Source of the DNA: Bacteroidota bacterium
GTDB lineage: Bacteria > Bacteroidota > Bacteroidia > Chitinophagales > Chitinophagaceae
Length of the DNA: 64,000 nt
NCBI GenBank assembly: GCA_049324295.1
Contig: JBMOKQ010000043.1
Span: 10,746-74,745 of the forward strand
Direction: 5' to 3'
This document shows, piece by piece, positions 14,252 to 27,241 of this stretch (positions are counted from its first letter, which is position 1; each line of letters opens with the position of its first letter). The notes under the pieces were generated by a model. The model was not told the DNA's origin, made no database searches, and saw only the letters and a list, made by a program, of their open reading frames with translations. The position numbers and the translations under genes are program-made.

Positions 14252-17200
14252 TTATTTAACTAATGTAATATTCCCTTTGTATGTATAGGTTGTATTGTTT
14301 TCACAAATTACTTCGCAGGTATATATATATACATCTGGAGATGCTTTAACTCCCTTTATAAGTCCATCCCAGCCCTGCGATTTATCATTCGGTTGAAAAT
14401 TTGATTTTTCGAAAATCACTCCTCCCCATCTGTTAAAAATTCTAAATGATTTTACAGAACGAATTCCTGAGGACCTGACCATTAATATATCATTTAATCC
14501 ATCCCCATCAGGTGTAAATACATTTGGAATAAAGACTTGAGCACTTTCGCAGAAAACTTTAATATTAATACTGTCTGCTGCAATACACCCATTCGCCGTT
14601 GTTCCCTTTACAGTATAGGTGATATTATTTTTAATAGTTGCTATTGGAAGTGGACATGTATTACAGTTGATATTATTATTGGGTTTCCATTCCCACTCAG
14701 CAACCGGCCCGTTTGTTATTATACTATTTAAAGGAAGTAAAGTGCCGGTTGCGAGGAGTCTGTCAGGACCAAGATCGATAGATAATGAAGGGTAAACCCT
14801 TATAGGAAGCCTTATGGTATCAGCACAGCTATAAATGGTAGTAGCTACAAAAATAGTTAGATAATTTCCCGGAAATTGAAAAACAGTAGGCGCATTTATA
14901 GTTGCAATTGTAGATCCGGAAGAGAAATTCCAAACAGTACTTTTAATTGGATCAAGTGAAAAAACATTTGCTGCAAAGGGAACTACCTGACCAACACAGG
15001 CAATAGAGTCCTTATTAGTATTAATTTGGGGAATATCCCAGATTGTAATTGGTATAGACTTACGAATCGTATCTCTGCAACCACTATTTCCTTCAGTAAT
15101 TTGTCTTACCTGCCAGGTACTAGGTGCATTGTATATATGGGTGGGATTTCTATCGTTACTATTACTTCCATCTCCAAAATCCCACCGTATTGATTTAACT
15201 CCATAAAAAGCTGTAGACCGATCTGTAAAAGCTACAATAGTGTTTCCGCAAGCCTGCTCAATTGCGTGTGTAAATCCACCCGTAACATCATCCACTCTTA
15301 TAGAATCAATACCATTTAGCCGACTTCTACACTTTCCTTCTGGTCCTGCAAGTAGGTCAACGGTTGGATAATATGGCCCTGCTGCAGCATATTTATGGTA
15401 AATAATTTTCTCAGTTGAGACCAACACATTGCCATCCCCAAAACTCCATCGAATAGAATCTACACCTGGAGCCGCCACCTCAAATCTTGCTGCATCACTT
15501 AAACATAATGGAGAAGTATTATGTTGAAAAATTCCTTTGGGCCCGGTTATTGTAACATTTTTTGTTGCCTCAAACCTACATCCGCCCGGATATTGCGCCG
15601 TCATAATCACCTGGAAAGTACCTGTTGACCTGTAAGTATGCGAAACCTCATCACCTTCATTGAATGCACCATCACCAAAATTCCATGTTGTTTTTTTAGA
15701 AGGCAGAACCAGATTAGTAAAAGTTACATCAAATGGGAAACAGGTTCCAACACTATCTGACATTAAAAAATTCCCAACAGAAGGTCTAACAAAAATGTAG
15801 ACCAAAGAACTGACTTTTATACAAGGAGATACAATCACAAGTCTTCTTACAAATATTGTTGACAATGGTGTCATATTTAAATTAGCTCCGGTTTGACCCG
15901 GGATATCGACCCAATCAGTCTTACCATCTTTACTTTGTTGCCATTGATAATCGAAAACATTATAAGCCCCGATTGGCAATTGACCCGCAATGGCAACTGC
16001 TTGTCCCGGGCAAACAGTCAGAGAGGTAGTGTCAATAATATTATTAAAATCAGGAACTACTTCTATAGGAATTACTGATGTATCTGATAAATTACACCCT
16101 CTTGATACACCTGCCGAAATTGAAATGATTCTGGCAGAAAAACTTTTTTGAATATTTAAAAAACGAATCGTAGTTGAGGTTACAGGCGTGTCTACCCAAT
16201 TAACAGAAATAGCAGGATTGAATGAATATTGCCATTTTGAAACCACACCTCGAAATGTATTTCCTGTATTGATGGTGATATCATTACCAACACAAGCCTT
16301 AATAGCTGAAGCAACAAGAGGACCTGTTATTGGTTTATCGAACACAATTACTTCCATTGTATCTCTTGTTGTTACACAGGCATTATTATTAATTGACCAT
16401 GATAATCGATAAGTACCAGGTCTATTGAAAACAAATACAGAAGTCGGACTGTTTGGATTGCGTATAATACTTGAACTTCCGGAGGGGGCTGGGCTAAGTA
16501 ATGTCCAGGTACCAGTTTCAAATGTTGGATTTAAAAGATTATTACCTGAAAGTGTTACGGAATCATTGCCAGAAGTGAATGAGCAAACAATTTTATCTGA
16601 TCCTGCATTTGAATTTGTCATAGTGGGTGTATTCACTATTTCAACCTCATCTGAAGAACTAGGACAAGCCCCTGGACCGCTTATCACCCAACTAAATTTA
16701 TATGTTTGCCCGGGTTGTAACCCGGTAATCTGGGTATTACGCAATGAAGGATTTGTGATTATCATAGCAGGTCCTAATGTCTGGTTCCAGACACCTGTTC
16801 CGAAAGATGGTGCATTGCCGTCTAAATTTGTTACTGTTTGATTACATAATCTCTGATCTGTTCCAGCATTTGAAGGTGTAACCGCAGGTACAACAGTAAT
16901 AGTAGTTGCCGTAGAATTACCTTGTGGGCAAACACCACTTTGTACAACAGCTCTATACAAAGTTGTTGTTGTTAAATTTAAATAACTCAGAGATGTTGTT
17001 GTATTATTAATACTAGTCCAGCTAGAGCCATTATTAACAGAACGTTCCCAGCGTATGACAGAGCCTGTTTGACCAGACAAGTTTACTGTCCCACTATTTC
17101 CCGTAATACAAACTGTCGCATTGCTGGATGTAACTCCGGGCACAGTTGTTAAAGATGTATTTACTTGTGTAATTGCACTAACTGCCTCATTTGTACATGA

Positions 17201-20200
17201 TCCTGATTGCTTTACTACAACTCTTACACTAAAACTATTCTGAACATTAGTAAAAGATACTGTATTGTTTGTTTGAATAATATCTACCCAGGTGTTATTA
17301 TCTGCAGGAGTTAAATTGTATTGCCATTTTTGAATTACACCTATAACGCCGGAAGTCGATATAGAAACTGTTGAACCCTGACAAACATTTATAACGGAAG
17401 CAGACAAAGTACCTGCATTAGGGTTATTATATATAGTAATTGTAATGGATGGAGAAACAACGGAACAAGCACCACTAGTGACTCTCCTACGATAATAAGT
17501 GGTCGTTGTTAAAATAGGAGGCTGATAATCTTTTGCTGTTGCAGTAGTAATAGTATTCCAGGTACTATTATTGGTAGAACTCTCCCATTGATAGGTATAA
17601 GAGCCATTACCTCCGGTTGGCAATTCACCCACTAGTAACGCAGTTGGATTACCCTCACAAATTTGCTGATTAGCTGAAATAGTAAAGTTGGCTAATGAAG
17701 GCAAAACTGTAATGCTGATAGTATTACTGGAAATGACTGTACAGGCTCCGCTACTCACTATTCTTCGAAATAATGTTGAAGTAGTGATTGCGCCCGGGTT
17801 ATAAGAGCTGTTATTTCCGTTTGAGGGTACATTGATCCATGACGTACCATTATCTGTTGAAAGCTGCCATTGATAGGTCAGTGTTCCGTTTCCTCCTAAA
17901 ACACCAGGTCCGGTAAGTGTAGTTGCTGAAGACCCGACACAAATCGTTTGATCGCTGGAAATAGTATTGTTGGATAATGCAGGTGTAACAACAATAGCTA
18001 CACTTGACGAAACAACATTGCAAACTCCACTCGTAACCCGCCTTCTGTAATAAGTGGTAGCACTAATTGTTGGTGGTTGATAGTCTTGTAATGTGGCACC
18101 GATAATTGTTGACCAGGTACTATTATTAGTAGAACTTTCCCATTGATAATTGTATGTACCCAACCCACCTGTAGGTAGTTGACCGGATAATAAAGTCACT
18201 GGACTTCCCTGACATATGTTTTGGGCACTTCCTATTCCGGTATTTGCTAATGAGGGCTGTACGGTAATAGTAATGGAATTAGAAGTTGAATTACAGGCAC
18301 CACTAAATACTTGTCGTCGGTACGTGGTGGTGGTACTTATTGTTCCTGGATTATAAGATATAGATGTTCCTCCACTGGATACATTTGACCATGAAACACC
18401 GCCGTTAGTTGAAAACTCCCATTGATAAGTAAAAGAATCTGTACCCCCCGTGGGTGTACCAGTAAGAGTAGAGGGGCTTGTTCCGGCACAAATAGTTTGG
18501 TCTGCTGTAATAGTATTACCAATAATCGCATTCGTAACATTTACAACAATTGAGGAGGAGTTGCTTCTGCAGGTAAATGCATTTGTTTGCGTAACATAAT
18601 AAGTAGTAGTACCTGCAACAGTTGTATTTGGCGTTGGAGCTGTAGTAGAGCCGCCAGTTAATCCACTATTGTTATACCATAAAACAGTATTTCCAATAGC
18701 TGTAGATGCTGTTAGAGCAGATGGTGTTGCATTTAAGCAATATTCTATTGGGCTTATTACACCTGGTGCTGAAGGTCTTGGATTTACTGTTATTGTAAAT
18801 GAATTGGAAGGCCCGGCACATCCACCGGCAGAAGGAGTAACCGATATTGTGGAAACGACAGGAGAACCTGTATTATTTATTGCAGTAAAAGCATTTATTG
18901 TTGCTGCATTTCCAGAACTAGCCAACCCTATCGATGTGAGATTATTTGTCCACGCAAAAGTTGTTCCTGTAACATTACCCGTAAATGTGAAGGATCCAAC
19001 TGTTGTGCCTGTACATATTTCCTGGTTAGCAGGTACAGTAGCATTAGGTATAGGCTTAATTTCTATAGAGCGGGTTAGAGTTGTTGTACCACATTCATTT
19101 GCAACTTCTAATTGAATGGTATAAGTTCCTGGTGTAGCATAATTAATACTACCCGGTGATGCACTCGTTGAACTAGCTGGACTGCCCCCTGTAAAAGACC
19201 AATTATATGTAGGTGCAGTGGTAGCATTACAATTGGCGACCGTAGCTGAAGGTGAAATAGAACCCACACAAATTGAAGTTGGTATACTGTTTAATGTTAC
19301 AGTTGGTTTTGATTTTACGGTAATGGTTCTTGTAGCAGCGGTTGATACACACCCCCCTGGACTTGTTACAACTAAACTGATAGTATAGGTTCCTGGGTTA
19401 ACAAATGAAAATTCTGGATTTTCTGAGGTACTACTACCTGATACATAATTAAATTGAGAAGTAGATGGCGTACATCCGGAAGCGGCTGAATAAGAAACAT
19501 TCCAACTATAAGTATTAACGCCACAGGAGGGCGCAGAACTAGTATTTGTGGTTTTTACTAATAAATTATTGCAACCAGTATTTTCATCAACAGTAAACGA
19601 AGCTGTAGGTATGGCATTTACGCAAATTGTTTTTGTTATTTCTGAAGCACCACAAGTATTATTCCCTGTTCGAAGTTTTATGCTGTAAGTTCCTGGTGTC
19701 GTAAAATTTAGTGTAGGGTTCGTTGATCCGGATATCCATAATGCTGGGTCATTTGAACTATTGTCGTTACCAAGTGCTCCTGATGTTACTGTAAACCCTG
19801 TAGAAGGTGTAATTGACCAAACAGTTTTCCCTGGTGAGCATACCCCTGTAACACTAACAATGGTATTTGAAGAAGGACTACTGTTTAGCACAGCTGAACT
19901 ATTCGTACATAAGTTAGTATTCGAAATGGTAAAATCTGCAACTGGTTTTTGTGAAACGTATATCGGACTAACTACTACATCAGAAACCCCACATGGATTA
20001 GATGCTTTGAGTGAAGTAGAAAAGGAATTATTATTTGCTGAAGGCGAAAAGCATGAAGATGTTAAAAATGTATGCGTAAATGTTGCTGGTGCTGGGTGAT
20101 TAACAACCAGAGGAGTTGTACCATCGTTAACAGTAATCGTATAAACTGTACCTGGAGGGTTCGAGGTAGTATTTGATATTGGAAATGTAAGTGCATCTCC

Positions 20201-21097
20201 TGTACATATTACTGTATTTCCTGGACTACCGAATGCAACTGCAGGCGTGGATCCTACAAAAACATAATTTGTTGCAACATTTTCGCATCCATTTTGCCCT
20301 GTTACTGTAAAAGTAAGTGTGTAAATGCCTGTTGTATAATTTTGAGTTACTCCGGGACTAGAGAAAGTGGCATTTTGATAATCAGCACTACCATTACCCC
20401 AAACTATCTTATAAGCCGTATTAGTAGTAGTAGATCCGTTTAAAAATGTAAAACTTGCATTAGATGCACTACAATTAGTATAGTAGGTGGCATTGTTATA
20501 TGTAGTGCTGCCAGTACCTAATAAAGTTGTAGAAGGCAACTCTTTTTTTACAATATTTTGTGTGATTGTATTACTACAATTATTAACATCTGTTACAGTC
20601 AATGACACATTAAAAGTCTGTGTTCCATTACCAGGATTGCCAACAAATGACTTTACTGGATTTTGTAGTGTTGAAGTATTGCCAGTTCCAGAATTACCGT
20701 CACCAAAATTCCAGGCATAAGTTAGCGATGTGCCTATAGAGGTATTAGTAAACGTTGTATTTACATTAGCACAATCGTTTTGCGAAGAAACTGTAAAACC
20801 AGCAGTTGGGTTAGTATTTACAATCAAAACAACTGCCGGAGTAGTTATTGTGTTATTAATTAACGCTGTGTAACTACCGGATGTAGTTGCATTAATGGAA
20901 ATACCTGTTTGAGCCGGGGTAATTTCAACATTATCTTTTAGCCATTTAAAAGTTGCTCCCGATGGTGCATCAACGATGGTAAATGTTTTCGTTTGCCCAG
21001 AACAAATATTTAATGACCCTGAATAGGATATTGTTTGTGAATATAGAATGACAGGACTAAACAAAAAGACTAAAATAATGAAAAGAAGACCCCGCAT
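14252..21097 (-). CDS. 2281-aa PKD/Ig-like repeat surface protein with gliding-motility-associated C-terminal domain (T9SS type-B CTD)
   Basis: Signal peptide, multiple WNFGDG PKD repeats, C-terminal FIPNVFTPDGDGLND...WDG...YKGNITLVK. Confidence 0.93.
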   Translation of the reverse strand: MRGLLFIILVFLFSPVILYSQTISYSGSLNICSGQTKTFTIVDAPSGATFKWLKDNVEITPAQTGISINATTSGSYTALINNTITTPAVVLIVNTNPTAGFTVSSQNDCANVNTTFTNTSIGTSLTYAWNFGDGNSGTGNTSTLQNPVKSFVGNPGNGTQTFNVSLTVTDVNNCSNTITQNIVKKELPSTTLLGTGSTTYNNATYYTNCSASNASFTFLNGSTTTNTAYKIVWGNGSADYQNATFSSPGVTQNYTTGIYTLTFTVTGQNGCENVATNYVFVGSTPAVAFGSPGNTVICTGDALTFPISNTTSNPPGTVYTITVNDGTTPLVVNHPAPATFTHTFLTSSCFSPSANNNSFSTSLKASNPCGVSDVVVSPIYVSQKPVADFTISNTNLCTNSSAVLNSSPSSNTIVSVTGVCSPGKTVWSITPSTGFTVTSGALGNDNSSNDPALWISGSTNPTLNFTTPGTYSIKLRTGNNTCGASEITKTICVNAIPTASFTVDENTGCNNLLVKTTNTSSAPSCGVNTYSWNVSYSAASGCTPSTSQFNYVSGSSTSENPEFSFVNPGTYTISLVVTSPGGCVSTAATRTITVKSKPTVTLNSIPTSICVGSISPSATVANCNATTAPTYNWSFTGGSPASSTSASPGSINYATPGTYTIQLEVANECGTTTLTRSIEIKPIPNATVPANQEICTGTTVGSFTFTGNVTGTTFAWTNNLTSIGLASSGNAATINAFTAINNTGSPVVSTISVTPSAGGCAGPSNSFTITVNPRPSAPGVISPIEYCLNATPSALTASTAIGNTVLWYNNSGLTGGSTTAPTPNTTVAGTTTYYVTQTNAFTCRSNSSSIVVNVTNAIIGNTITADQTICAGTSPSTLTGTPTGGTDSFTYQWEFSTNGGVSWSNVSSGGTSISYNPGTISTTTTYRRQVFSGACNSTSNSITITVQPSLANTGIGSAQNICQGSPVTLLSGQLPTGGLGTYNYQWESSTNNSTWSTIIGATLQDYQPPTISATTYYRRRVTSGVCNVVSSSVAIVVTPALSNNTISSDQTICVGSSATTLTGPGVLGGNGTLTYQWQLSTDNGTSWINVPSNGNNSSYNPGAITTSTLFRRIVSSGACTVISSNTISITVLPSLANFTISANQQICEGNPTALLVGELPTGGNGSYTYQWESSTNNSTWNTITTATAKDYQPPILTTTTYYRRRVTSGACSVVSPSITITIYNNPNAGTLSASVINVCQGSTVSISTSGVIGVIQKWQYNLTPADNNTWVDIIQTNNTVSFTNVQNSFSVRVVVKQSGSCTNEAVSAITQVNTSLTTVPGVTSSNATVCITGNSGTVNLSGQTGSVIRWERSVNNGSSWTSINNTTTSLSYLNLTTTTLYRAVVQSGVCPQGNSTATTITVVPAVTPSNAGTDQRLCNQTVTNLDGNAPSFGTGVWNQTLGPAMIITNPSLRNTQITGLQPGQTYKFSWVISGPGACPSSSDEVEIVNTPTMTNSNAGSDKIVCSFTSGNDSVTLSGNNLLNPTFETGTWTLLSPAPSGSSSIIRNPNSPTSVFVFNRPGTYRLSWSINNNACVTTRDTMEVIVFDKPITGPLVASAIKACVGNDITINTGNTFRGVVSKWQYSFNPAISVNWVDTPVTSTTIRFLNIQKSFSARIISISAGVSRGCNLSDTSVIPIEVVPDFNNIIDTTSLTVCPGQAVAIAGQLPIGAYNVFDYQWQQSKDGKTDWVDIPGQTGANLNMTPLSTIFVRRLVIVSPCIKVSSLVYIFVRPSVGNFLMSDSVGTCFPFDVTFTNLVLPSKKTTWNFGDGAFNEGDEVSHTYRSTGTFQVIMTAQYPGGCRFEATKNVTITGPKGIFQHNTSPLCLSDAARFEVAAPGVDSIRWSFGDGNVLVSTEKIIYHKYAAAGPYYPTVDLLAGPEGKCRSRLNGIDSIRVDDVTGGFTHAIEQACGNTIVAFTDRSTAFYGVKSIRWDFGDGSNSNDRNPTHIYNAPSTWQVRQITEGNSGCRDTIRKSIPITIWDIPQINTNKDSIACVGQVVPFAANVFSLDPIKSTVWNFSSGSTIATINAPTVFQFPGNYLTIFVATTIYSCADTIRLPIRVYPSLSIDLGPDRLLATGTLLPLNSIITNGPVAEWEWKPNNNINCNTCPLPIATIKNNITYTVKGTTANGCIAADSINIKVFCESAQVFIPNVFTPDGDGLNDILMVRSSGIRSVKSFRIFNRWGGVIFEKSNFQPNDKSQGWDGLIKGVKASPDVYIYTCEVICENNTTYTYKGNITLVK

Positions 21098-21418: not shown

Positions 21419-22186
21419 TTATTCCTCTGAGATAACAGATAATTCTAACTGGTTATTTTCTGTCGTCGTCTTCTCCTTCTTCCCCCTCACCTTCGCCGTC
21501 TTAAACGGCTTTATCAACCCCGCATCCATCTTATCCGTTACAATCTTATGCACAGCCGCAAGTATGATCTCATCTTCACATTTTTCGTTGTACCTGGCTT
21601 TGATCAACTTCTTAATGCATTTCAAAACCGCATCAGAGCAAATGATGCCTGCAATATTGTAAGGGTCGGTAGCTTCACATTTATTCCAGAGCGGTTTGAA
21701 GGAGTTTTTCACCACGCTTTCTTTGTGCAGGTGTTGTAAATGATTGGCTGCATTTTTTAAAGCAGTAACATCACTCAGGTCAATGGCAAAGATTAAGCGG
21801 GATGATATGGGTTGCTCAAAAATGATCTTATAAAACTCAAAGTTCTTCCCGTTGGTGAGCAGGGCATATTCAATGCCTTCATTGGCGCCATAATTTACTG
21901 TTTGCCGTAAATGTTTTTCGGATAACTGGAAGGAAAGGGCTTTTACTTCAACCAGGAAATGCCTTGTTTTGTTAACCTGTATCACATAATCGGCATAAGT
22001 GCCCTTGATCATGTATTCTGTTTTTATTTCTTCCAGTTGCTTATAACCCAATACATCTGAAAGAAAACGGTTGATCATGATACGGGTACCCGATTCGTCG
22101 AGCTCTTTGATGTTGCCATCTAAAAAATCTTTACGGTATGCTTTCAGGGAATTGAATAGCTTTTGTTGCTTTAATGCAGTGAGCAT
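21419..22186 (-). CDS. Stand-alone HsdR N-terminal (type I restriction endonuclease-like PD-(D/E)xK) domain protein
   Basis: DESGTRIMINRFLSDVLGY, EY.IKGTYADY, LVEVKA, Q...Y, LLTNG; ORF open to 22243. Confidence 0.85.
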   Translation of the reverse strand: MLTALKQQKLFNSLKAYRKDFLDGNIKELDESGTRIMINRFLSDVLGYKQLEEIKTEYMIKGTYADYVIQVNKTRHFLVEVKALSFQLSEKHLRQTVNYGANEGIEYALLTNGKNFEFYKIIFEQPISSRLIFAIDLSDVTALKNAANHLQHLHKESVVKNSFKPLWNKCEATDPYNIAGIICSDAVLKCIKKLIKARYNEKCEDEIILAAVHKIVTDKMDAGLIKPFKTAKVRGKKEKTTTENNQLELSVISEE

Positions 22187-22360
22187 AATATTTGTTTTGG
22201 TTGATGAGAGCAGGCTCAATTCAAAACTAACAGGTAGGAACATCTTTTTATTACGGTAAACCGTAAGCCATTAGGAGTTAGCTTTTAGCCATTAGCTGTT
22301 AGGCGTTAGGAAGAGGTGTTAGCCTAAATGCTAATGGCTAATAGCTAACCCCTATCGCAT

Positions 22361-23026
22361 TTATAACAAACCTGCATTACTACAAAACACCATCAACTGC
22401 TGGTTATTGGTAAAACCAAGTTCATCCCTGATCTGACTCAGGCGTTTCTCGATGCTGCTTAGACTGGAAGGTTTGATGTGCTGCTGTTTAAGATAAGCCG
22501 GTATTTCATTTTGCTGGTAACCTTGGCTAAGCAAACGGATAATCGTGATATCGAAATCTGTGAACTCGTATGTATTTGAACGCTTGATCAGTTGCGTCAA
22601 TGACCTGGGATAGTATCGTTGCCCCTTTGCAAGTGCCTGCATCGCCGACTTTAATTCCTGCACATCATGCCTTGCCTTACGCACATAGGCATCTACTTCA
22701 TGGTTCTCAAACAGGTTGTGTATATCGGCAGGACGATGCTGCCCGGATAAGATGAGGATAAGGATACCCGGCTGAACCGCACGAACAGCCCGTATGAGCT
22801 CAATGCCATCAGTTATCTTTTGAGCAGTTCCATCATCTTCAAAAGACAGATCGGTGATCAGCAGGTCGTAGGGTTCACCCTTTTGTTGAGCCAGTTGAAT
22901 TTTAGCTAAGGCATCATCGCAATAAAATGCGTAATCATACTGCTTCACTTTCAGGTCATCCATTGTCTTCTGCACAGAAAGGTTGGCAAACTCCTGGTCT
23001 TCGGCAATAATAACTTTATCAATCAT
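22361..23026 (-). CDS. Response regulator (REC + divergent LuxR-like HTH)
   Basis: VIIAED, DLLITDLSF, ILILS, AYVRK; C-terminal SSIEKRLSQIR. Confidence 0.9.
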   Translation of the reverse strand: MIDKVIIAEDQEFANLSVQKTMDDLKVKQYDYAFYCDDALAKIQLAQQKGEPYDLLITDLSFEDDGTAQKITDGIELIRAVRAVQPGILILILSGQHRPADIHNLFENHEVDAYVRKARHDVQELKSAMQALAKGQRYYPRSLTQLIKRSNTYEFTDFDITIIRLLSQGYQQNEIPAYLKQQHIKPSSLSSIEKRLSQIRDELGFTNNQQLMVFCSNAGLL

Positions 23027-24690
23027 GCTTTACTGGATTGAAGCGGAAAGCGGATGGAAATAGATGCCCCAGCTTTATCGCTTTTTCCAAAAATAATATC
23101 CCCGTTTAATGATTGAATACGGTTAACCGTATTGTGCAATCCATTACCGTACTCAATGTCTGCAGGGAATCCCTTTCCATCGTCGCTGTAGTTGATCGTA
23201 CCGGTATTATTATCTTCTTTGAATTTTATGACCACGTTGCCGGCGCCACTGTGTTTTTTCATATTGGTCATGATCTCCCGGAGGATCAATAACAGTTGAT
23301 TTTTTTGAACACTGGTCACCCTGTTCCAGAATACGGGTTGGTTACCCACTGCAAATACCTTGGTTTGCTCATTGGTAAATTCATTGAGCAGGCCATGGAT
23401 CTGTTTGTCGTAATCTGTATCATCTGTGTAAGCAAGTTCTTCGTAAGATATATCCCGTGATTTTTCATACAGGTCCTCAACTTTTGTCAGTAAGGGATCA
23501 CGCTCAATTTCCTCGCTGTGTTCCAGTTCGTTCATAATTCCGTACAATCCATTGGCCACCACATCGTGTATTTTTCGGGAAGTGTTTAATCTGGCGTCTC
23601 TTATTGATAGCTCGGCTTCCTGTTTGATGCGTTTTCTGCGCTTACGGTACCATGCTACCAACCCGATAATAATGCTTACTGCAAGCAGGATCACACTATA
23701 TGTAAGCAAACGCTGCCGGGTAATATGTTGCTGTAAGGCAAGATTATCGGCCTTATTCTTCTGCACTTCGTATCGTATAAAAGCAAAACGGTTGCGGGTG
23801 GTGTCTTTTGATCGTTGAAGACTGTCGTTGAGTAGTTTAAATTCCTGGTACCAATATTCTTTTAAAACCGGATTGCGGGTAAAACTTACCAATTTATCAA
23901 TTGCTTCCAGTATGTCTTTCGCACTGTGAATGCTCTTTGCTTTTTCAAACATTTTATTGGCATACCACAATGCCGAATCGGGATTTGATTTTGCATAATA
24001 ATCGGCAAGGTGTGCATAACTCGCATTAAGTCCCTGGTGGTATTGGCTATCGACGCGGATCTTTAATGCAGTCCAGAATTCCGGTAACACAGGGTAGCCA
24101 CGGTTTTGCAGCCACCTGCTGTTCGCCCTGTTATCTATTATCCTGGCAACAAGTGACTGGTCGCTTGGTTGCATGACCAGTATGGAGTCATAAATTACAA
24201 TCGCACCCTTGTAGTTCCCGCTTTTCTGAAGTGCTGTGGCTTTTCCATTTAATAGATCATAAATAAAACCAGTTCCCCGGGCAAAATATATCGCTTTGTT
24301 ATAGTAGCTGATGGCATCTCCGTATGATTTTAAATCCAGGCTTACGTTTCCCAGTATATTGTAAACATAGCTCAATTCCTCATGGTGTTTTTTATTACGC
24401 TGATCAAGTGTATGAATGGCACCGATCAGGCTTTCCTGGGCACCATACAGATCGCCTACATACCATTGCATTTCTCCCATGAATTTGTAAGCGCTGCCTT
24501 TTTTAAGGGTATCATCGGGATTGTTTACATAACGGTTAAACATCAGGAAAGCTGAATCCCATTGATCATAATACCATAAGCGATAGCCGTTATCATAATC
24601 GGTGTACCTGGTCTTTTTTTCCTGCGATTGAACAGTCAGGCCTGACAATAGTAAAGCGGTAGCCAGTAATAAAGAAAGCGTGTATTTCAA
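23023..24690 (-). CDS. Membrane sensor histidine kinase with periplasmic TPR repeats
   Basis: Signal peptide, TPR helices (YNILGNV, YYNKAI), one TM segment (about aa 330-350), KIHDVVANG H-box, NMKKHS, DDGKG, GNGL. Confidence 0.92.
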   Translation of the reverse strand: MKYTLSLLLATALLLSGLTVQSQEKKTRYTDYDNGYRLWYYDQWDSAFLMFNRYVNNPDDTLKKGSAYKFMGEMQWYVGDLYGAQESLIGAIHTLDQRNKKHHEELSYVYNILGNVSLDLKSYGDAISYYNKAIYFARGTGFIYDLLNGKATALQKSGNYKGAIVIYDSILVMQPSDQSLVARIIDNRANSRWLQNRGYPVLPEFWTALKIRVDSQYHQGLNASYAHLADYYAKSNPDSALWYANKMFEKAKSIHSAKDILEAIDKLVSFTRNPVLKEYWYQEFKLLNDSLQRSKDTTRNRFAFIRYEVQKNKADNLALQQHITRQRLLTYSVILLAVSIIIGLVAWYRKRRKRIKQEAELSIRDARLNTSRKIHDVVANGLYGIMNELEHSEEIERDPLLTKVEDLYEKSRDISYEELAYTDDTDYDKQIHGLLNEFTNEQTKVFAVGNQPVFWNRVTSVQKNQLLLILREIMTNMKKHSGAGNVVIKFKEDNNTGTINYSDDGKGFPADIEYGNGLHNTVNRIQSLNGDIIFGKSDKAGASISIRFPLQSSKA

Positions 24691-24713
24691 GCGGCCTTAT
24701 TTGCCTTAAATAT

Positions 24714-24745
24714 AAAAAGAAAGACAGAGTAATCTCTGCCTTTCT
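24714..24745 (-). terminator. Intrinsic terminator between the peptide gene and the kinase gene
   Basis: Minus strand reads AGAAAGGCAGAG-ATTA-CTCTGTCTTTCT followed by TTTT. Confidence 0.75.
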
Positions 24746-24754
24746 ACGGTGTCA

Positions 24755-24940
24755 TTACAGCCCTGTAGGTGGTGGTGGTGGTGGCACTGGTGGTTTTGGA
24801 GTGCCACCCGTTTCGCCACCGGTATCATCGAGAGTAGAAACGGTGGTGGAATGGGCCTTTTTGCAGTTGCCATGATTCTCAGCGGTATGGGTTGGGTTGA
24901 AGCATAAGAATGTGGCCAACCATATTAATAGTTCTAACAT
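24755..24940 (-). CDS. Small putative secreted peptide (61 aa; DTGGETGG + polyproline C-terminus)
   Basis: ATG start after an A-rich leader, hydrophobic N-terminus, co-oriented upstream of the TPR kinase, own terminator. Confidence 0.7.
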   Translation of the reverse strand: MLELLIWLATFLCFNPTHTAENHGNCKKAHSTTVSTLDDTGGETGGTPKPPVPPPPPPTGL

Positions 24941-25158
24941 TGTTTAATGATTTAAGATGGTGTAAAAAATTGCCCTTACCGGGTAGCGACCCCGGCAGAG
25001 ACTGTTTTGTAAGAAGCGCTTCTTACGATGGGAAGGAAGGGCGTTGATCGCAGTCTGGCTAGCAACTTCCCATACTTGCTAACCTCGCTGCGATCGCTGC
25101 ACTCAACAGATCATTTGATTTGTTGTAACAGGTACCAAACGATCACAATGCAAACTTA
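24941..25158 (-). ncRNA. Candidate structured 5' leader with pseudoknot
   Basis: TAAGTTTG -7 box at 25158-25151; nested stems 25046-25053/25088-25095 and 25057-25065/25076-25084; loop 8-mer complementary to 25028-25035. Confidence 0.5.
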
Positions 25159-25317
25159 ACAGCGGCTATAAGCCTTTGCGGAGTTGGATTCCAAAAATTC
25201 CAATCATTCCAAAAATTCCGGGAAACCGTAATCTTCAACACCAGTTGGGAGCTTATTTTGATCCGGTAATTCCGAGAATTCCGGTTATTATGTACATTTA
25301 GAAGGAAGAGAAATTAT

Positions 25318-26289
25318 ATGCGGCTCACTCACACAGCATACATCAAACTGGTATTTCGTACTTATCAATTGTTACGCAGTACCCCCGAATTTTCTCCTGC
25401 ACTGAAGCAGCCAACACCGGCGAGTATCCGTAAAGAATGTCTGACTCTTTATAAGGAACGCCCTGAAAAAAAAGATGAGCCAATTCTCAGATCATTCTTC
25501 GGACCACTTCCAGAAAATAAATCATTCTTAGCCTCCATCGAAAATTTCCCTACTGATGGATTTAGAGCATTCTCAAATTATCTGAAGGGAAAGGCAATAA
25601 AAACCGATGATAAAAATGTAGAACTGCTAGCATGGCTGATAAACTTTCCGCATAGGCCCTTCCGGTATGGAATGGATGTAATTTTAAGCGAGAAAGAAAA
25701 AACAATTTTAAATAGCGATGAAGGCGTCGGTGAAAATTTAGCGAAGGATATTGAAGAAGAAGAGAATAATACGACTGAAGATGTATTGAGTCAACCTCCG
25801 CCCAATGAGCTGGAGGCCACAATAATACCAGCTACTGAAGCACAAATGCCTGTTGTTCCGATAAATCCCGGCAGCGAGATAAGACCAGTGAAAAAGAGTT
25901 TAACAGTTAATAGGCAAGGGCTGATCCTTGGGATACCTTTATTTTTTGCGATTATTTCATTAGGATTTTATCTGCTCTATGACAAAGGTGCTAAATGTAT
26001 GTATTGGACAGGTGATCACTACGAGAAGATAGATTGTGATGCAGATATAAATGACAAGGATTTATTTAATGAAGAAAGATGGAAGAATTTTAAAAAGATC
26101 ACCAGTCCGGATACGATAACCACGTGGTCGATTGGAAAACTTTATTACCTAAAAACTAACGGGGCATTGGAGTATTTTACCGCAGGAGGCAAGCATCCTG
26201 TATTTGTTACCCGCACTTTAAAAGTGCTTTCACCTTATATGTTTGATACATACCTTCGAAAAAAGAGGCTCCTGGTAAAGACTCATTAG
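25318..26289 (+). CDS. Hypothetical bitopic membrane protein
   Basis: 323 aa; cytoplasmic N-domain, acidic linker, one TM segment (LILGIPLFFAIISLGFYLLY), exported CMYW...C domain. Confidence 0.75.
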   Translation: MRLTHTAYIKLVFRTYQLLRSTPEFSPALKQPTPASIRKECLTLYKERPEKKDEPILRSFFGPLPENKSFLASIENFPTDGFRAFSNYLKGKAIKTDDKNVELLAWLINFPHRPFRYGMDVILSEKEKTILNSDEGVGENLAKDIEEEENNTTEDVLSQPPPNELEATIIPATEAQMPVVPINPGSEIRPVKKSLTVNRQGLILGIPLFFAIISLGFYLLYDKGAKCMYWTGDHYEKIDCDADINDKDLFNEERWKNFKKITSPDTITTWSIGKLYYLKTNGALEYFTAGGKHPVFVTRTLKVLSPYMFDTYLRKKRLLVKTH

Positions 26290-26331
26290 CCGAATCAAAC
26301 AAAAAGCCTTAGTAACAGATAACGATCTGCT

Positions 26332-26598
26332 ATGAAAATTCCTTTTGCTATCTTCCTGTCTTTGCTTTTCTGTTCTTGCGATCAAACAGGCCGCAAAACA
26401 GATGAACTTAACCGGCGTGTTACCCGCCTCGAGCAAAGAATGGATTCTTTAACCAATACCAAAACTGGAATTTCCGGCGACTATACCAATAAGGGAACCA
26501 TTACAGAAAATAGTCGTTGCCGGGGAATCACCAAAAAAAGAACACAGTGTAAGCGGAAAGCAAAAACCAATGGGTATTGCTGGCAGCATGGCGGGTGA
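26332..26598 (+). CDS. Small lipoprotein with C-terminal DUF5763-like Cys/His motif
   Basis: Lipobox LFCSC; C-terminal RCRGITKKRTQCKRK...YCWQH. Confidence 0.75.
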   Translation: MKIPFAIFLSLLFCSCDQTGRKTDELNRRVTRLEQRMDSLTNTKTGISGDYTNKGTITENSRCRGITKKRTQCKRKAKTNGYCWQHGG

Positions 26599-27241
26599 TT
26601 GATGGTTTCAATCCACCCATTGCATTCATTCAAAATTTTTTCTTTTAGCTTTTTTGCGCTATATAAAATTTTTTCATCGTACACCATCACCTGGTATACC
26701 ACAGGCTATGATAAGGAAAACCCTTACGGGGTACAAGGCAGAAACAAATTGTCATTCCAATAGTTTGGTAATAGCCAGTAAGTCTTCCGCAATTGGGTTA
26801 GCTCATTGTTCAACCCGGGGAGCGAAAGAGAAAGTCTCACAAGTAAAATGAAGCTGTTGAGAATACCTATTTCACTAAACACTTGATTTACAACGAAATA
26901 CGTTTAGTGTACCAGCCATTATTACACCTGTTTCCTGATCTGCTGAAACGCTGTCTGGTAAAGGGTTTGCAGATATTTTACCAATGTTAACACACAGTAA
27001 ATACACACTAAACACACAGTACAGCACATATTTTGTGTGATACTGTTTGTTTATACTGTTTTAATACTGTAGTAAACATATGTAAAACCACTCCTGATTG
27101 GAAACGCAACAAAATATGCTGTACTGAAAAACAGTATAGCCGGGATGCAGATAAAATAGCTTGTAAACAGGTCTCGCTTTGAGAGCAGCACTCTTTGCTG
27201 TGCTGAGAGGTTTTTTATTCGGCTAATAAACACAGTAACTT

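Follow-up and report, generated by a model that had tools for sequence, protein, structure and literature searches.

A conserved pseudoknotted leader RNA precedes the peptide gene of a two-component cassette in Bacteroidota

What is the function of the ~200 bases that precede a tiny peptide gene, when that gene is itself followed by the genes of a sensor kinase and a response regulator? The question is raised by a locus in the window, the 64,000-nucleotide stretch of a Chitinophagaceae genome analysed here. A reading of the sequence alone had proposed that the segment is an unrecognised cis-regulatory RNA or small RNA that controls the peptide/kinase module. We found that the ~200 bases constitute a conserved structured RNA with a pseudoknot, whose existence, structure, conservation, and genomic linkage are established by the comparisons described below. 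The leader is a member of a structured RNA family that had not been catalogued before, and its description as an unrecognised RNA attached to the peptide/kinase module is supported by covariation, by natural variants of the pseudoknot, and by the lack of a match in Rfam. The features of the locus are listed in Table 1.

Table 1. Features of the leader and its cassette, in window coordinates (position 1 is the first nucleotide of the window)
Feature	Position	Strand	Remarks
Response regulator, RcsB/NarL-like over its full length	22361–23026	-	
TPR-containing sensor histidine kinase, NarX/LiaS-type catalytic core	23023–24690	-	
Intrinsic terminator 3' of the peptide ORF	24718–24745	-	Strong; called by the consensus scan
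Peptide gene, 61 amino acids	24755–24940	-	Homologues 3' of the RNA in every Bacteroidota locus with enough sequence
A/U-rich unstructured spacer before the start codon	24941–24963	-	Unpaired in nearly all leaders
U6 run, AAUUUUUU, 2 nt past P4	24964–24969	-	Makes P4 terminator-like in this clade
P4, two-tier hairpin: P4a GUCU/GGGC, P4b CCGGG/CCCGG	24972–25002	-	
P3, 18-nt perfect palindrome, GTAAGAAGCGCTTCTTAC (GUAAGAAGCGCUUCUUAC)	25009–25026	-	Absent from the sequence-only reading
Pseudoknot 3' strand, CUUCCCAU, 3 nt past the base of P2	25028–25035	-	Family core CUUCCC
P2, long irregular hairpin	25039–25102	-	
Pseudoknot 5' strand in the P2 loop, AUGGGAAG	25066–25073	-	Family core GGGAAG
P1, 5'-terminal hairpin, GAUCGUUUGGU / AUCAAAUGAUC	25109–25144	-	Absent from the sequence-only reading
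-7 promoter box, TAAGTTTG, Bacteroidetes-type	25151–25158	-	Consensus TAnnTTTG
Four GGAAT direct repeats, 9-nt period	25186–25221	-	Conserved across genera
Distal GGAAT-type direct repeats, CCGGAATTCTCGGAATTACCGGAT	25262–25284	-	Conserved among Sediminibacterium species
Divergent membrane protein, 323 amino acids, single-pass	25318–26289	+	Position in the cassette conserved

The cassette has a constant order, consisting of the divergent membrane protein, the GGAAT repeats with the -7 box, the leader, the peptide, the TPR kinase, and the RcsB-like regulator, and nearly every locus that extends far enough contains it as a whole. The peptide starts at an ATG at 24940 (-); its hydrophobic N-terminus is closed by a Cys, and it also has the motif DTGGETG and a tail rich in Pro. 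Across the peptide family, a short hydrophobic N-terminus, often closed by a lipobox-like Cys, leads into a linker rich in N, S, and T; the (D)TGGE(T)G motif comes next, and the tail is either PPKP or poly-Pro. GTG serves as the start codon in some of these peptides, and no NCBIfam model for the family was found. The response regulator aligns with RcsB from end to end. The divergent membrane protein has no Pfam or NCBIfam family; in Weeksellaceae it is alignable only over its transmembrane segment and C-terminal third. Beyond the regulator lie a gene for an HSDR_N-domain protein (21419–22243, minus strand), which only close relatives within Chitinophagaceae share at this place (L065, L124, and L135), and a gene for a 2281-amino acid protein (14252–21097, minus strand) beside a PorP/SprF gene.

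From its 5' end, the leader is composed of P1, P2 with the loop pseudoknot, P3, the two-tier P4, the A/U-rich spacer, and the AUG. The loop of P1 carries GUUACAACA, which is related to a conserved GUACA(A)AAC. In most clades, P1 has an additional inner hairpin (P1b), whose stem varies and whose UAGCUA loop is conserved; the conserved GUACA(A)AAC comes after it. Changes in P1 among homologues keep pairing through G-U, and its outer pairs covary modestly (AU/GC/CG and GC/AU). P2 includes P2a (GUGC/GCCC, with one mismatch in the window), an 8-bp stem (GAUCGCAG/CUGCGAUC), a 3x3 internal loop, a 9-bp stem (GGUUAGCAA/UUGCUAGCC), and a 10-nt loop. An outer stem in which GATCGCAG (25095–25088) pairs with CTGCGATC (25053–25046) and an inner stem in which GGTTAGCAA (25084–25076) pairs with TTGCTAGCC (25065–25057) through one U-G pair had been read on the minus strand, and both are indeed present there, as is the perfect complementarity claimed between the loop sequence ATGGGAAG (25073–25066) and CTTCCCAT (25035–25028). 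All 22 pairs of P2 (four in P2a and 18 in the rest) have two-sided changes in at least one sequence. The length of P2 is held at 63–68 nt across leaders and the linker from P2 to the 3' strand of the pseudoknot at 2–6 nt; that both are narrowly held fits a tertiary constraint. The leader RNA also has many invariant unpaired nucleotides. In Weeksellaceae-type leaders only, an A-rich linker was seen by inspection to pair with the U-rich stretch before the AUG.

Homologous leaders covary strongly in three differently ascertained samples, which bears out the fold that had been read from a single sequence. In a MAFFT alignment of the P2–P3 core (A6; 86 sequences, structure defined by hand), 81.8% of cells are paired versus 71.9% in shuffles, and the covariation score is 0.295 versus 0.155 in shuffles, with 0 of 500 shuffles reaching it. 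Sliding the partners by 1–3 columns reduced the score to 0.075–0.099. For leaders that were found through the peptide only, with A6 as the basis of the covariance model used for realignment (R1), the score is 0.296 versus 0.136 in shuffles. An RNA-independent sample was obtained by scanning metagenome contigs with 17 aligned kinases, which reported 518 relatives, with 80 loci listed; among the matches listed, 65 of the 80 loci have the motif upstream on the same strand. Covariation in this 65-sequence set is 0.308 versus 0.146 (0 of 500 shuffles reach it; slid controls, 0.054–0.097). Among the 15 kinase-found loci without a model match, eight have almost no upstream DNA, and the peptide gene was not found in four. 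Two others score below the model threshold although the peptide and the P3 motif are present in both: in L248 the leader is complete and its pseudoknot is a variant, whereas L232 is truncated where the contig ends. In L193, only a partial peptide frame occurs and the motif is absent. P4 was scored in a separate 40-sequence alignment (0.395 versus 0.200 in shuffles). P1, P2, P3, and P4 all covary. RNAalifold predicted nothing on the broad P4 alignment and only part of P2 and P3 on the full leader, and the helices were then defined by hand and tested by counts.

The pseudoknot required particular attention to how leaders were found. In the pattern-derived set, the search itself fixed both pseudoknot strands, and in the peptide-derived set the strands are almost invariant; both sets accordingly show conservation and not covariation. 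The kinase-derived set settles the question, as the pairing is kept there through two-sided compensatory changes. In this set, 98.9% of cells are paired, and the two core pairs that vary do so with zero mismatches (pair 3, 43–90: GC in 60 and AU in 3; pair 4, 44–89: AU in 62 and CG in 1). The compensatory variant GGAAAG/CUUUCC occurs in three lineages (L204, L233, and L248, the last being the locus below the model threshold), which differ in P3 type, such that these events are probably independent. Other compensatory variants are GGACAG/CUGUCC in L196 and GGGAGGA/UCCUCUU in L036, and GGGAGG occurs with a G-U pair in L192. The flanking pairs switch among UU/AA, AU/AU (in the clade of the window), CC/GG, and CA/UG. 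Exceptions with uncompensated changes are L030, L044, L200, and L234.

The topology of this pseudoknot is similar to that of the c-di-GMP-II and SAM-I riboswitches, in which a hairpin loop pairs near the base of its own hairpin thanks to a kink-turn. As in these, the terminal loop of a long hairpin pairs with a downstream strand, and the helix has to bend back. However, there is no sequence similarity to them, and by inspection of alignment A6, P2 lacks the tandem G-A signature of a kink-turn. The tip of P2, which is ~28 layers tall, has to reach its own base, and this needs a sharp bend or an opening of the basal helix.

The 218-nt minus strand folds with a minimum free energy of -72.2 kcal/mol (z = -4.56, 200 dinucleotide shuffles), and the plus strand with -69.8 kcal/mol (z = -4.0). 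Owing to this near-equal stability, energy alone cannot pick the strand. The lines of evidence that bear on the strand are the promoter box, the downstream ORF, the ratio of G-U to A-C in the best-aligned helix (67 versus 15), and transitions in P4, which are mostly of the G-U type in the Sediminibacterium-like clade. Pooled over all helices, the ratio is 169 G-U versus 147 A-C and not decisive, the count being informative only in well-aligned helices.

The leader RNA is the best-conserved part of the locus. Among six Sediminibacterium species, the P2-pseudoknot-P3 core has 94.9% pairwise identity (88% invariant columns) and P4 has 92.5% (84.6%), as compared with 82.4% (64.6%) for the peptide ORF and 74% (52.5%) for the promoter. 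The kinases have 63–68% amino acid identity among congeners. The leader is single-copy in its genome, one copy per genome being the rule, and is present in five of 280 congeneric genomes. No plasmid or phage copies were matched.

A peptide search of 400 genomes of the family yielded 22 homologues in 16 genera, and the leader profile matches most of their upstream regions; the RNA is present in 26 leaders that were found by the peptide alone. A DNA pattern that combined the core of P3 with the loop and the sequence complementary to the latter matched at least 119 stretches in species-representative genomes. About 90 of these are from Bacteroidota, and each has a homologous peptide gene 62–97 nt downstream; two matches that seemed to lack the peptide use a GTG start and do carry it. 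The remaining misses are cuts at locus edges, or chance matches outside Bacteroidota without a peptide. Carriers belong to Chitinophagaceae, Sphingobacteriaceae, Weeksellaceae, and Aquimarina, and include Chitinophaga, Niabella, Ferruginibacter, Lacibacter, Paraflavitalea, Pedobacter, and Mucilaginibacter, as well as Chryseobacterium, Epilithonimonas, Elizabethkingia, Empedobacter, Cloacibacterium, and Aquimarina. In all, at least about 180 Bacteroidota loci have the RNA, always within the same peptide/sensor-kinase/regulator cassette. Its orientation and distance to the ORF are always the same, and it was never seen apart from the ORF. An even draw across the class with the covariance model found the RNA in one of 150 genomes, indicating that its distribution is patchy.

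The -7 box that had been read at 25158–25151 on the minus strand is present there, directly upstream of P1. Of 86 leaders, 48 have a strict TAnnTTTG upstream whose distance to the motif is fixed, and near-matches are visible in others. From this positionally conserved box, transcription is predicted to start at about 25146–25144. The GGAAT repeats are placed between the divergent genes, and in the 3.65-Mb genome three GGAAT units with a period of 9 nt (one mismatch allowed) occur at this site only. The repeats are probably the binding array of the RcsB-like response regulator of the cassette; given their uniqueness, this locus may be the only one that the regulator targets directly. A purine run (GAAGGAAGAG) lies within 25285–25317 of the plus strand, just 5' of the ATG of the divergent gene at 25318.

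Comparison with databases was consistent with the proposal that the RNA is unrecognised. Against Rfam 15 (4227 models), the region 23000–27000 gave three chance-level matches at E ≤ 10, all elsewhere and none on the leader, and 15 diverse loci gave only tRNA at gathering thresholds. In the literature searched, which left out most subscription-journal papers, we found no paper with the P3 sequence and nothing relevant on such a motif or cassette in Bacteroidota. Two specific identities were rejected. An upstream-ORF attenuator is at odds with spacings that are not multiples of three, with a frame from the loop NUG that runs for anything from 3 to 49 codons, and with a 1-nt indel in genome G032 that breaks the frame. 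As for an ANTAR-regulated leader, the RcsB-like regulator has no ANTAR domain (no match even at E ≤ 10), and only P3 could offer an A..G.. hexaloop.

The explanation that best accounts for these observations, and one that we regard as evenly balanced between being right and wrong, is that the segment acts as a cis-acting regulatory leader, either of the riboswitch/attenuator or of the protein-responsive type. Transcription would proceed from the promoter flanked by the GGAAT array, to which the RcsB-like regulator probably binds, and the 5' end of the RNA would lie at P1 or shortly upstream of it. A small molecule or a protein would be sensed by a domain made up of P1, P2, and the pseudoknot, the last of which would stabilise the domain. 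The state of the sensor would be relayed through P3 and P4 and set the amount of full-length peptide mRNA, by premature termination at P4 and the U6 run in the Sediminibacterium clade and by RNA stability or access to the start region in other clades. We infer this cis-regulatory mode from the fixed orientation and distance of the single-copy RNA to the ORF; from its stable structure, covariation, pseudoknot variants, and conservation above that of the ORF; and from the -7 box upstream of P1, the combination of P4 with U6, and the occurrence of modular short leaders. The latter are natural leaders in two congeneric genomes, L032 (1300–1500, plus strand) and L034 (minus strand), in which P3 and P4 follow the same promoter and GGAAT array without P1, P2, or the pseudoknot; their congener L033 has a full leader. 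They suggest a modular design in which P1, P2, and the pseudoknot serve as the sensor and P3 and P4 as the output domain.

Several points count against a cis-acting leader. The gene context suggests no ligand or binding protein, and a conserved antiterminator or an alternative pairing that sequesters the start codon was not found. The sharp bend or partial opening of P2 needed by its tip-to-base pseudoknot is a further difficulty, and the near-invariant stem sequence of P3 is unusual for a riboswitch. P4 itself is terminator-like in few leaders. The CCGGG/CCCGG hairpin that had been noted near the start codon lies at 24995–24979 (-) and is the P4b tier; the outer tier, P4a (25002–24999 with 24975–24972), was added here. 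At least six T within 9 nt occur after P4 in 21% of leaders, versus 43% for hairpins after the ORF, and the consensus terminator scan makes no call on P4 and U6 in the window. Attenuation at P4 may thus be clade-specific.

Among the closest known systems are the orphan riboswitch candidates found by comparative genomics (Breaker–Weinberg motifs in Rfam). These and the leader share a multi-helix fold with a pseudoknot, invariant loop and junction nucleotides alongside covarying stems, a constant position upstream of one gene class, and, in some clades, a hairpin and U-run before the ORF. They differ in that the leader here has no sequence or structure match among the 4227 Rfam models, precedes a signalling-type peptide and then a two-component system instead of a metabolic or transport gene, has a P3 stem that is conserved in sequence, and lacks a clear expression platform in most clades. 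A second parallel is prgQ/Anti-Q of Enterococcus, a plasmid-borne Gram-positive system in which the structured 5' region of a peptide-signal gene carries a terminator and controls read-through into the genes downstream. The parallel lies in the signalling-type peptide gene, its structured 5' region (terminator-like at P4 and U6 in the clade of the window), and the divergent gene alongside. Unlike prgQ, the leader has no opposite-strand -7 box by eye (the minus strand of the window lacks CAAAnnTA there), and hence no evident countertranscript.

The main rival to a cis-acting leader is a trans-acting role like that of RNAIII, which we consider unlikely though still a serious contender. RNAIII of the Staphylococcus aureus agr system is transcribed from a direct-repeat promoter beside a divergent promoter and is driven by a peptide-linked two-component system. 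By analogy, the leader and ORF would be a dual-function transcript of ~430 nt, driven by the two-component system and serving as its effector, that encodes the peptide and also acts on other RNAs or proteins through the single-stranded motifs GUACAAAAC, UAGCUA, GGGAAG/CUUCCC, and AGCGCU. The likeness extends to the direct-repeat promoter next to a divergent promoter, to the peptide-linked two-component system, to a transcript of a few hundred nucleotides that joins a small ORF and a conserved structure, and to a regulator that may have few targets. The unit is discrete, running ~430 nt from the promoter to the strong terminator, whose stem keeps its pairing despite two-sided changes in congeners. 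The genome-unique array, conservation of the RNA above the ORF, and the many invariant unpaired nucleotides also fit such a role. However, the pair of motifs with the highest conservation are each other's partners and covary, and hence are not free seeds, and the RNA never occurs apart from the ORF. No conserved target complementarity was found: the sole match noticed, between CUUCCUUC of the leader (25038–25031) and the purine run upstream of the divergent gene, is complementary in the window and not kept in G032. RNAIII also belongs to another phylum and has no homology to the leader, its regulator is of the LytTR and not the RcsB type, and here the structured part lies 5' of the ORF.

It is improbable that the leader is instead a processive antitermination or polarity element like the put or EAR RNAs, which would let polymerase read through the terminator into the kinase and regulator genes. 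The arrangement would suit such an element, in that the strong terminator separates the peptide gene from the kinase gene, only ~30 nt lie between this terminator and the kinase start in the window and in congeners, and the leader heads the unit in every locus. Against this, the leader has no similarity to any antitermination RNA in Rfam, and none of the genes seen next to the cassette in the window is NusG-like.

The remaining functional alternative, which we judge about equally improbable, places the function in the DNA: the palindromes, chiefly P3 (TAAGAAGCGCTTCTTA), would be operators at which a dimeric RcsB-like regulator forms a roadblock, and the RNA fold would be incidental. P3 is the feature that lends this weight. 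The sequence of its stem is conserved beyond pairing, with the apical 12 nt almost invariant across the family, and it is a perfect palindrome through its centre in >90% of leaders. The four central bases stay self-complementary, as GCGC or, in one metagenome clade, as GGCC, a symmetry for which a hairpin has no need. TAAGAA-like half-sites occur in RcsB-type boxes, which is no more than a lead. On the other hand, the outer pairs of P3 covary freely (UAAG/CUUA, CAAG/CUUG, GAAG/CUUC, UCAG/CUGA, and UGAG/CUCA, with UA/CG/GC/AU and AU/CG counted in the alignments). In some leaders P3 is extended to 11–12 bp by covarying pairs of arbitrary, unrelated sequence, two leaders have U-G pairs, and in some lineages it is swapped for unrelated hairpins or given GNRA-type loops. 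The free covariation, extension, and replacement argue for an RNA hairpin over a pure DNA operator, and operators cannot explain the covariation in P1, P2, P4, and the pseudoknot.

As a part of the RNA, P3 has further invariant complementarity: its 3' strand is complementary to the loop sequence GGGAAGC and its 5' strand to CUUC. Judged from the sequence, the pseudoknot and P3 might therefore conceivably exchange strands. The centre of P3 is palindromic like retroviral dimerisation loops, and by this analogy, dimerisation of the RNA through a kissing loop at P3 is a possibility.

A non-functional or selfish REP/MITE-like repeat that lies in the intergenic region by chance would explain the dense inverted repeats, but this is practically discounted by the single copy in the genome (for which a dispersed palindromic repeat was rejected), the lack of plasmid or phage copies, the covariation, and the fixed position and orientation in about 180 loci.

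Bacteroidota from soil, water, and hosts share the RNA, among them Chitinophaga, Pedobacter, Mucilaginibacter, Chryseobacterium, Elizabethkingia, and Sediminibacterium. To our knowledge, this Gram-negative phylum lacks Hfq and rarely uses Shine–Dalgarno sequences, its post-transcriptional control is poorly known, and no peptide quorum-type circuit has been characterised in it; uncatalogued RNA motifs that are large, pseudoknotted, and as rich in covariation are likewise few. The cassette to which the RNA is tied resembles a peptide-sensing two-component circuit, and working out the role of the RNA would offer a handle on that signalling system. More tentatively, and well short of an even chance, the leader might be the aptamer of a new riboswitch class that ties production of the peptide to an intracellular metabolite or second messenger, or else an RNA effector that is a counterpart of RNAIII. 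The natural compensatory variants of the pseudoknot and the short leaders constitute ready-made experimental designs. Mucilaginibacter corticis MAH-19 has two complete cassettes on two contigs (L121 and L132), whose leaders and peptides differ.
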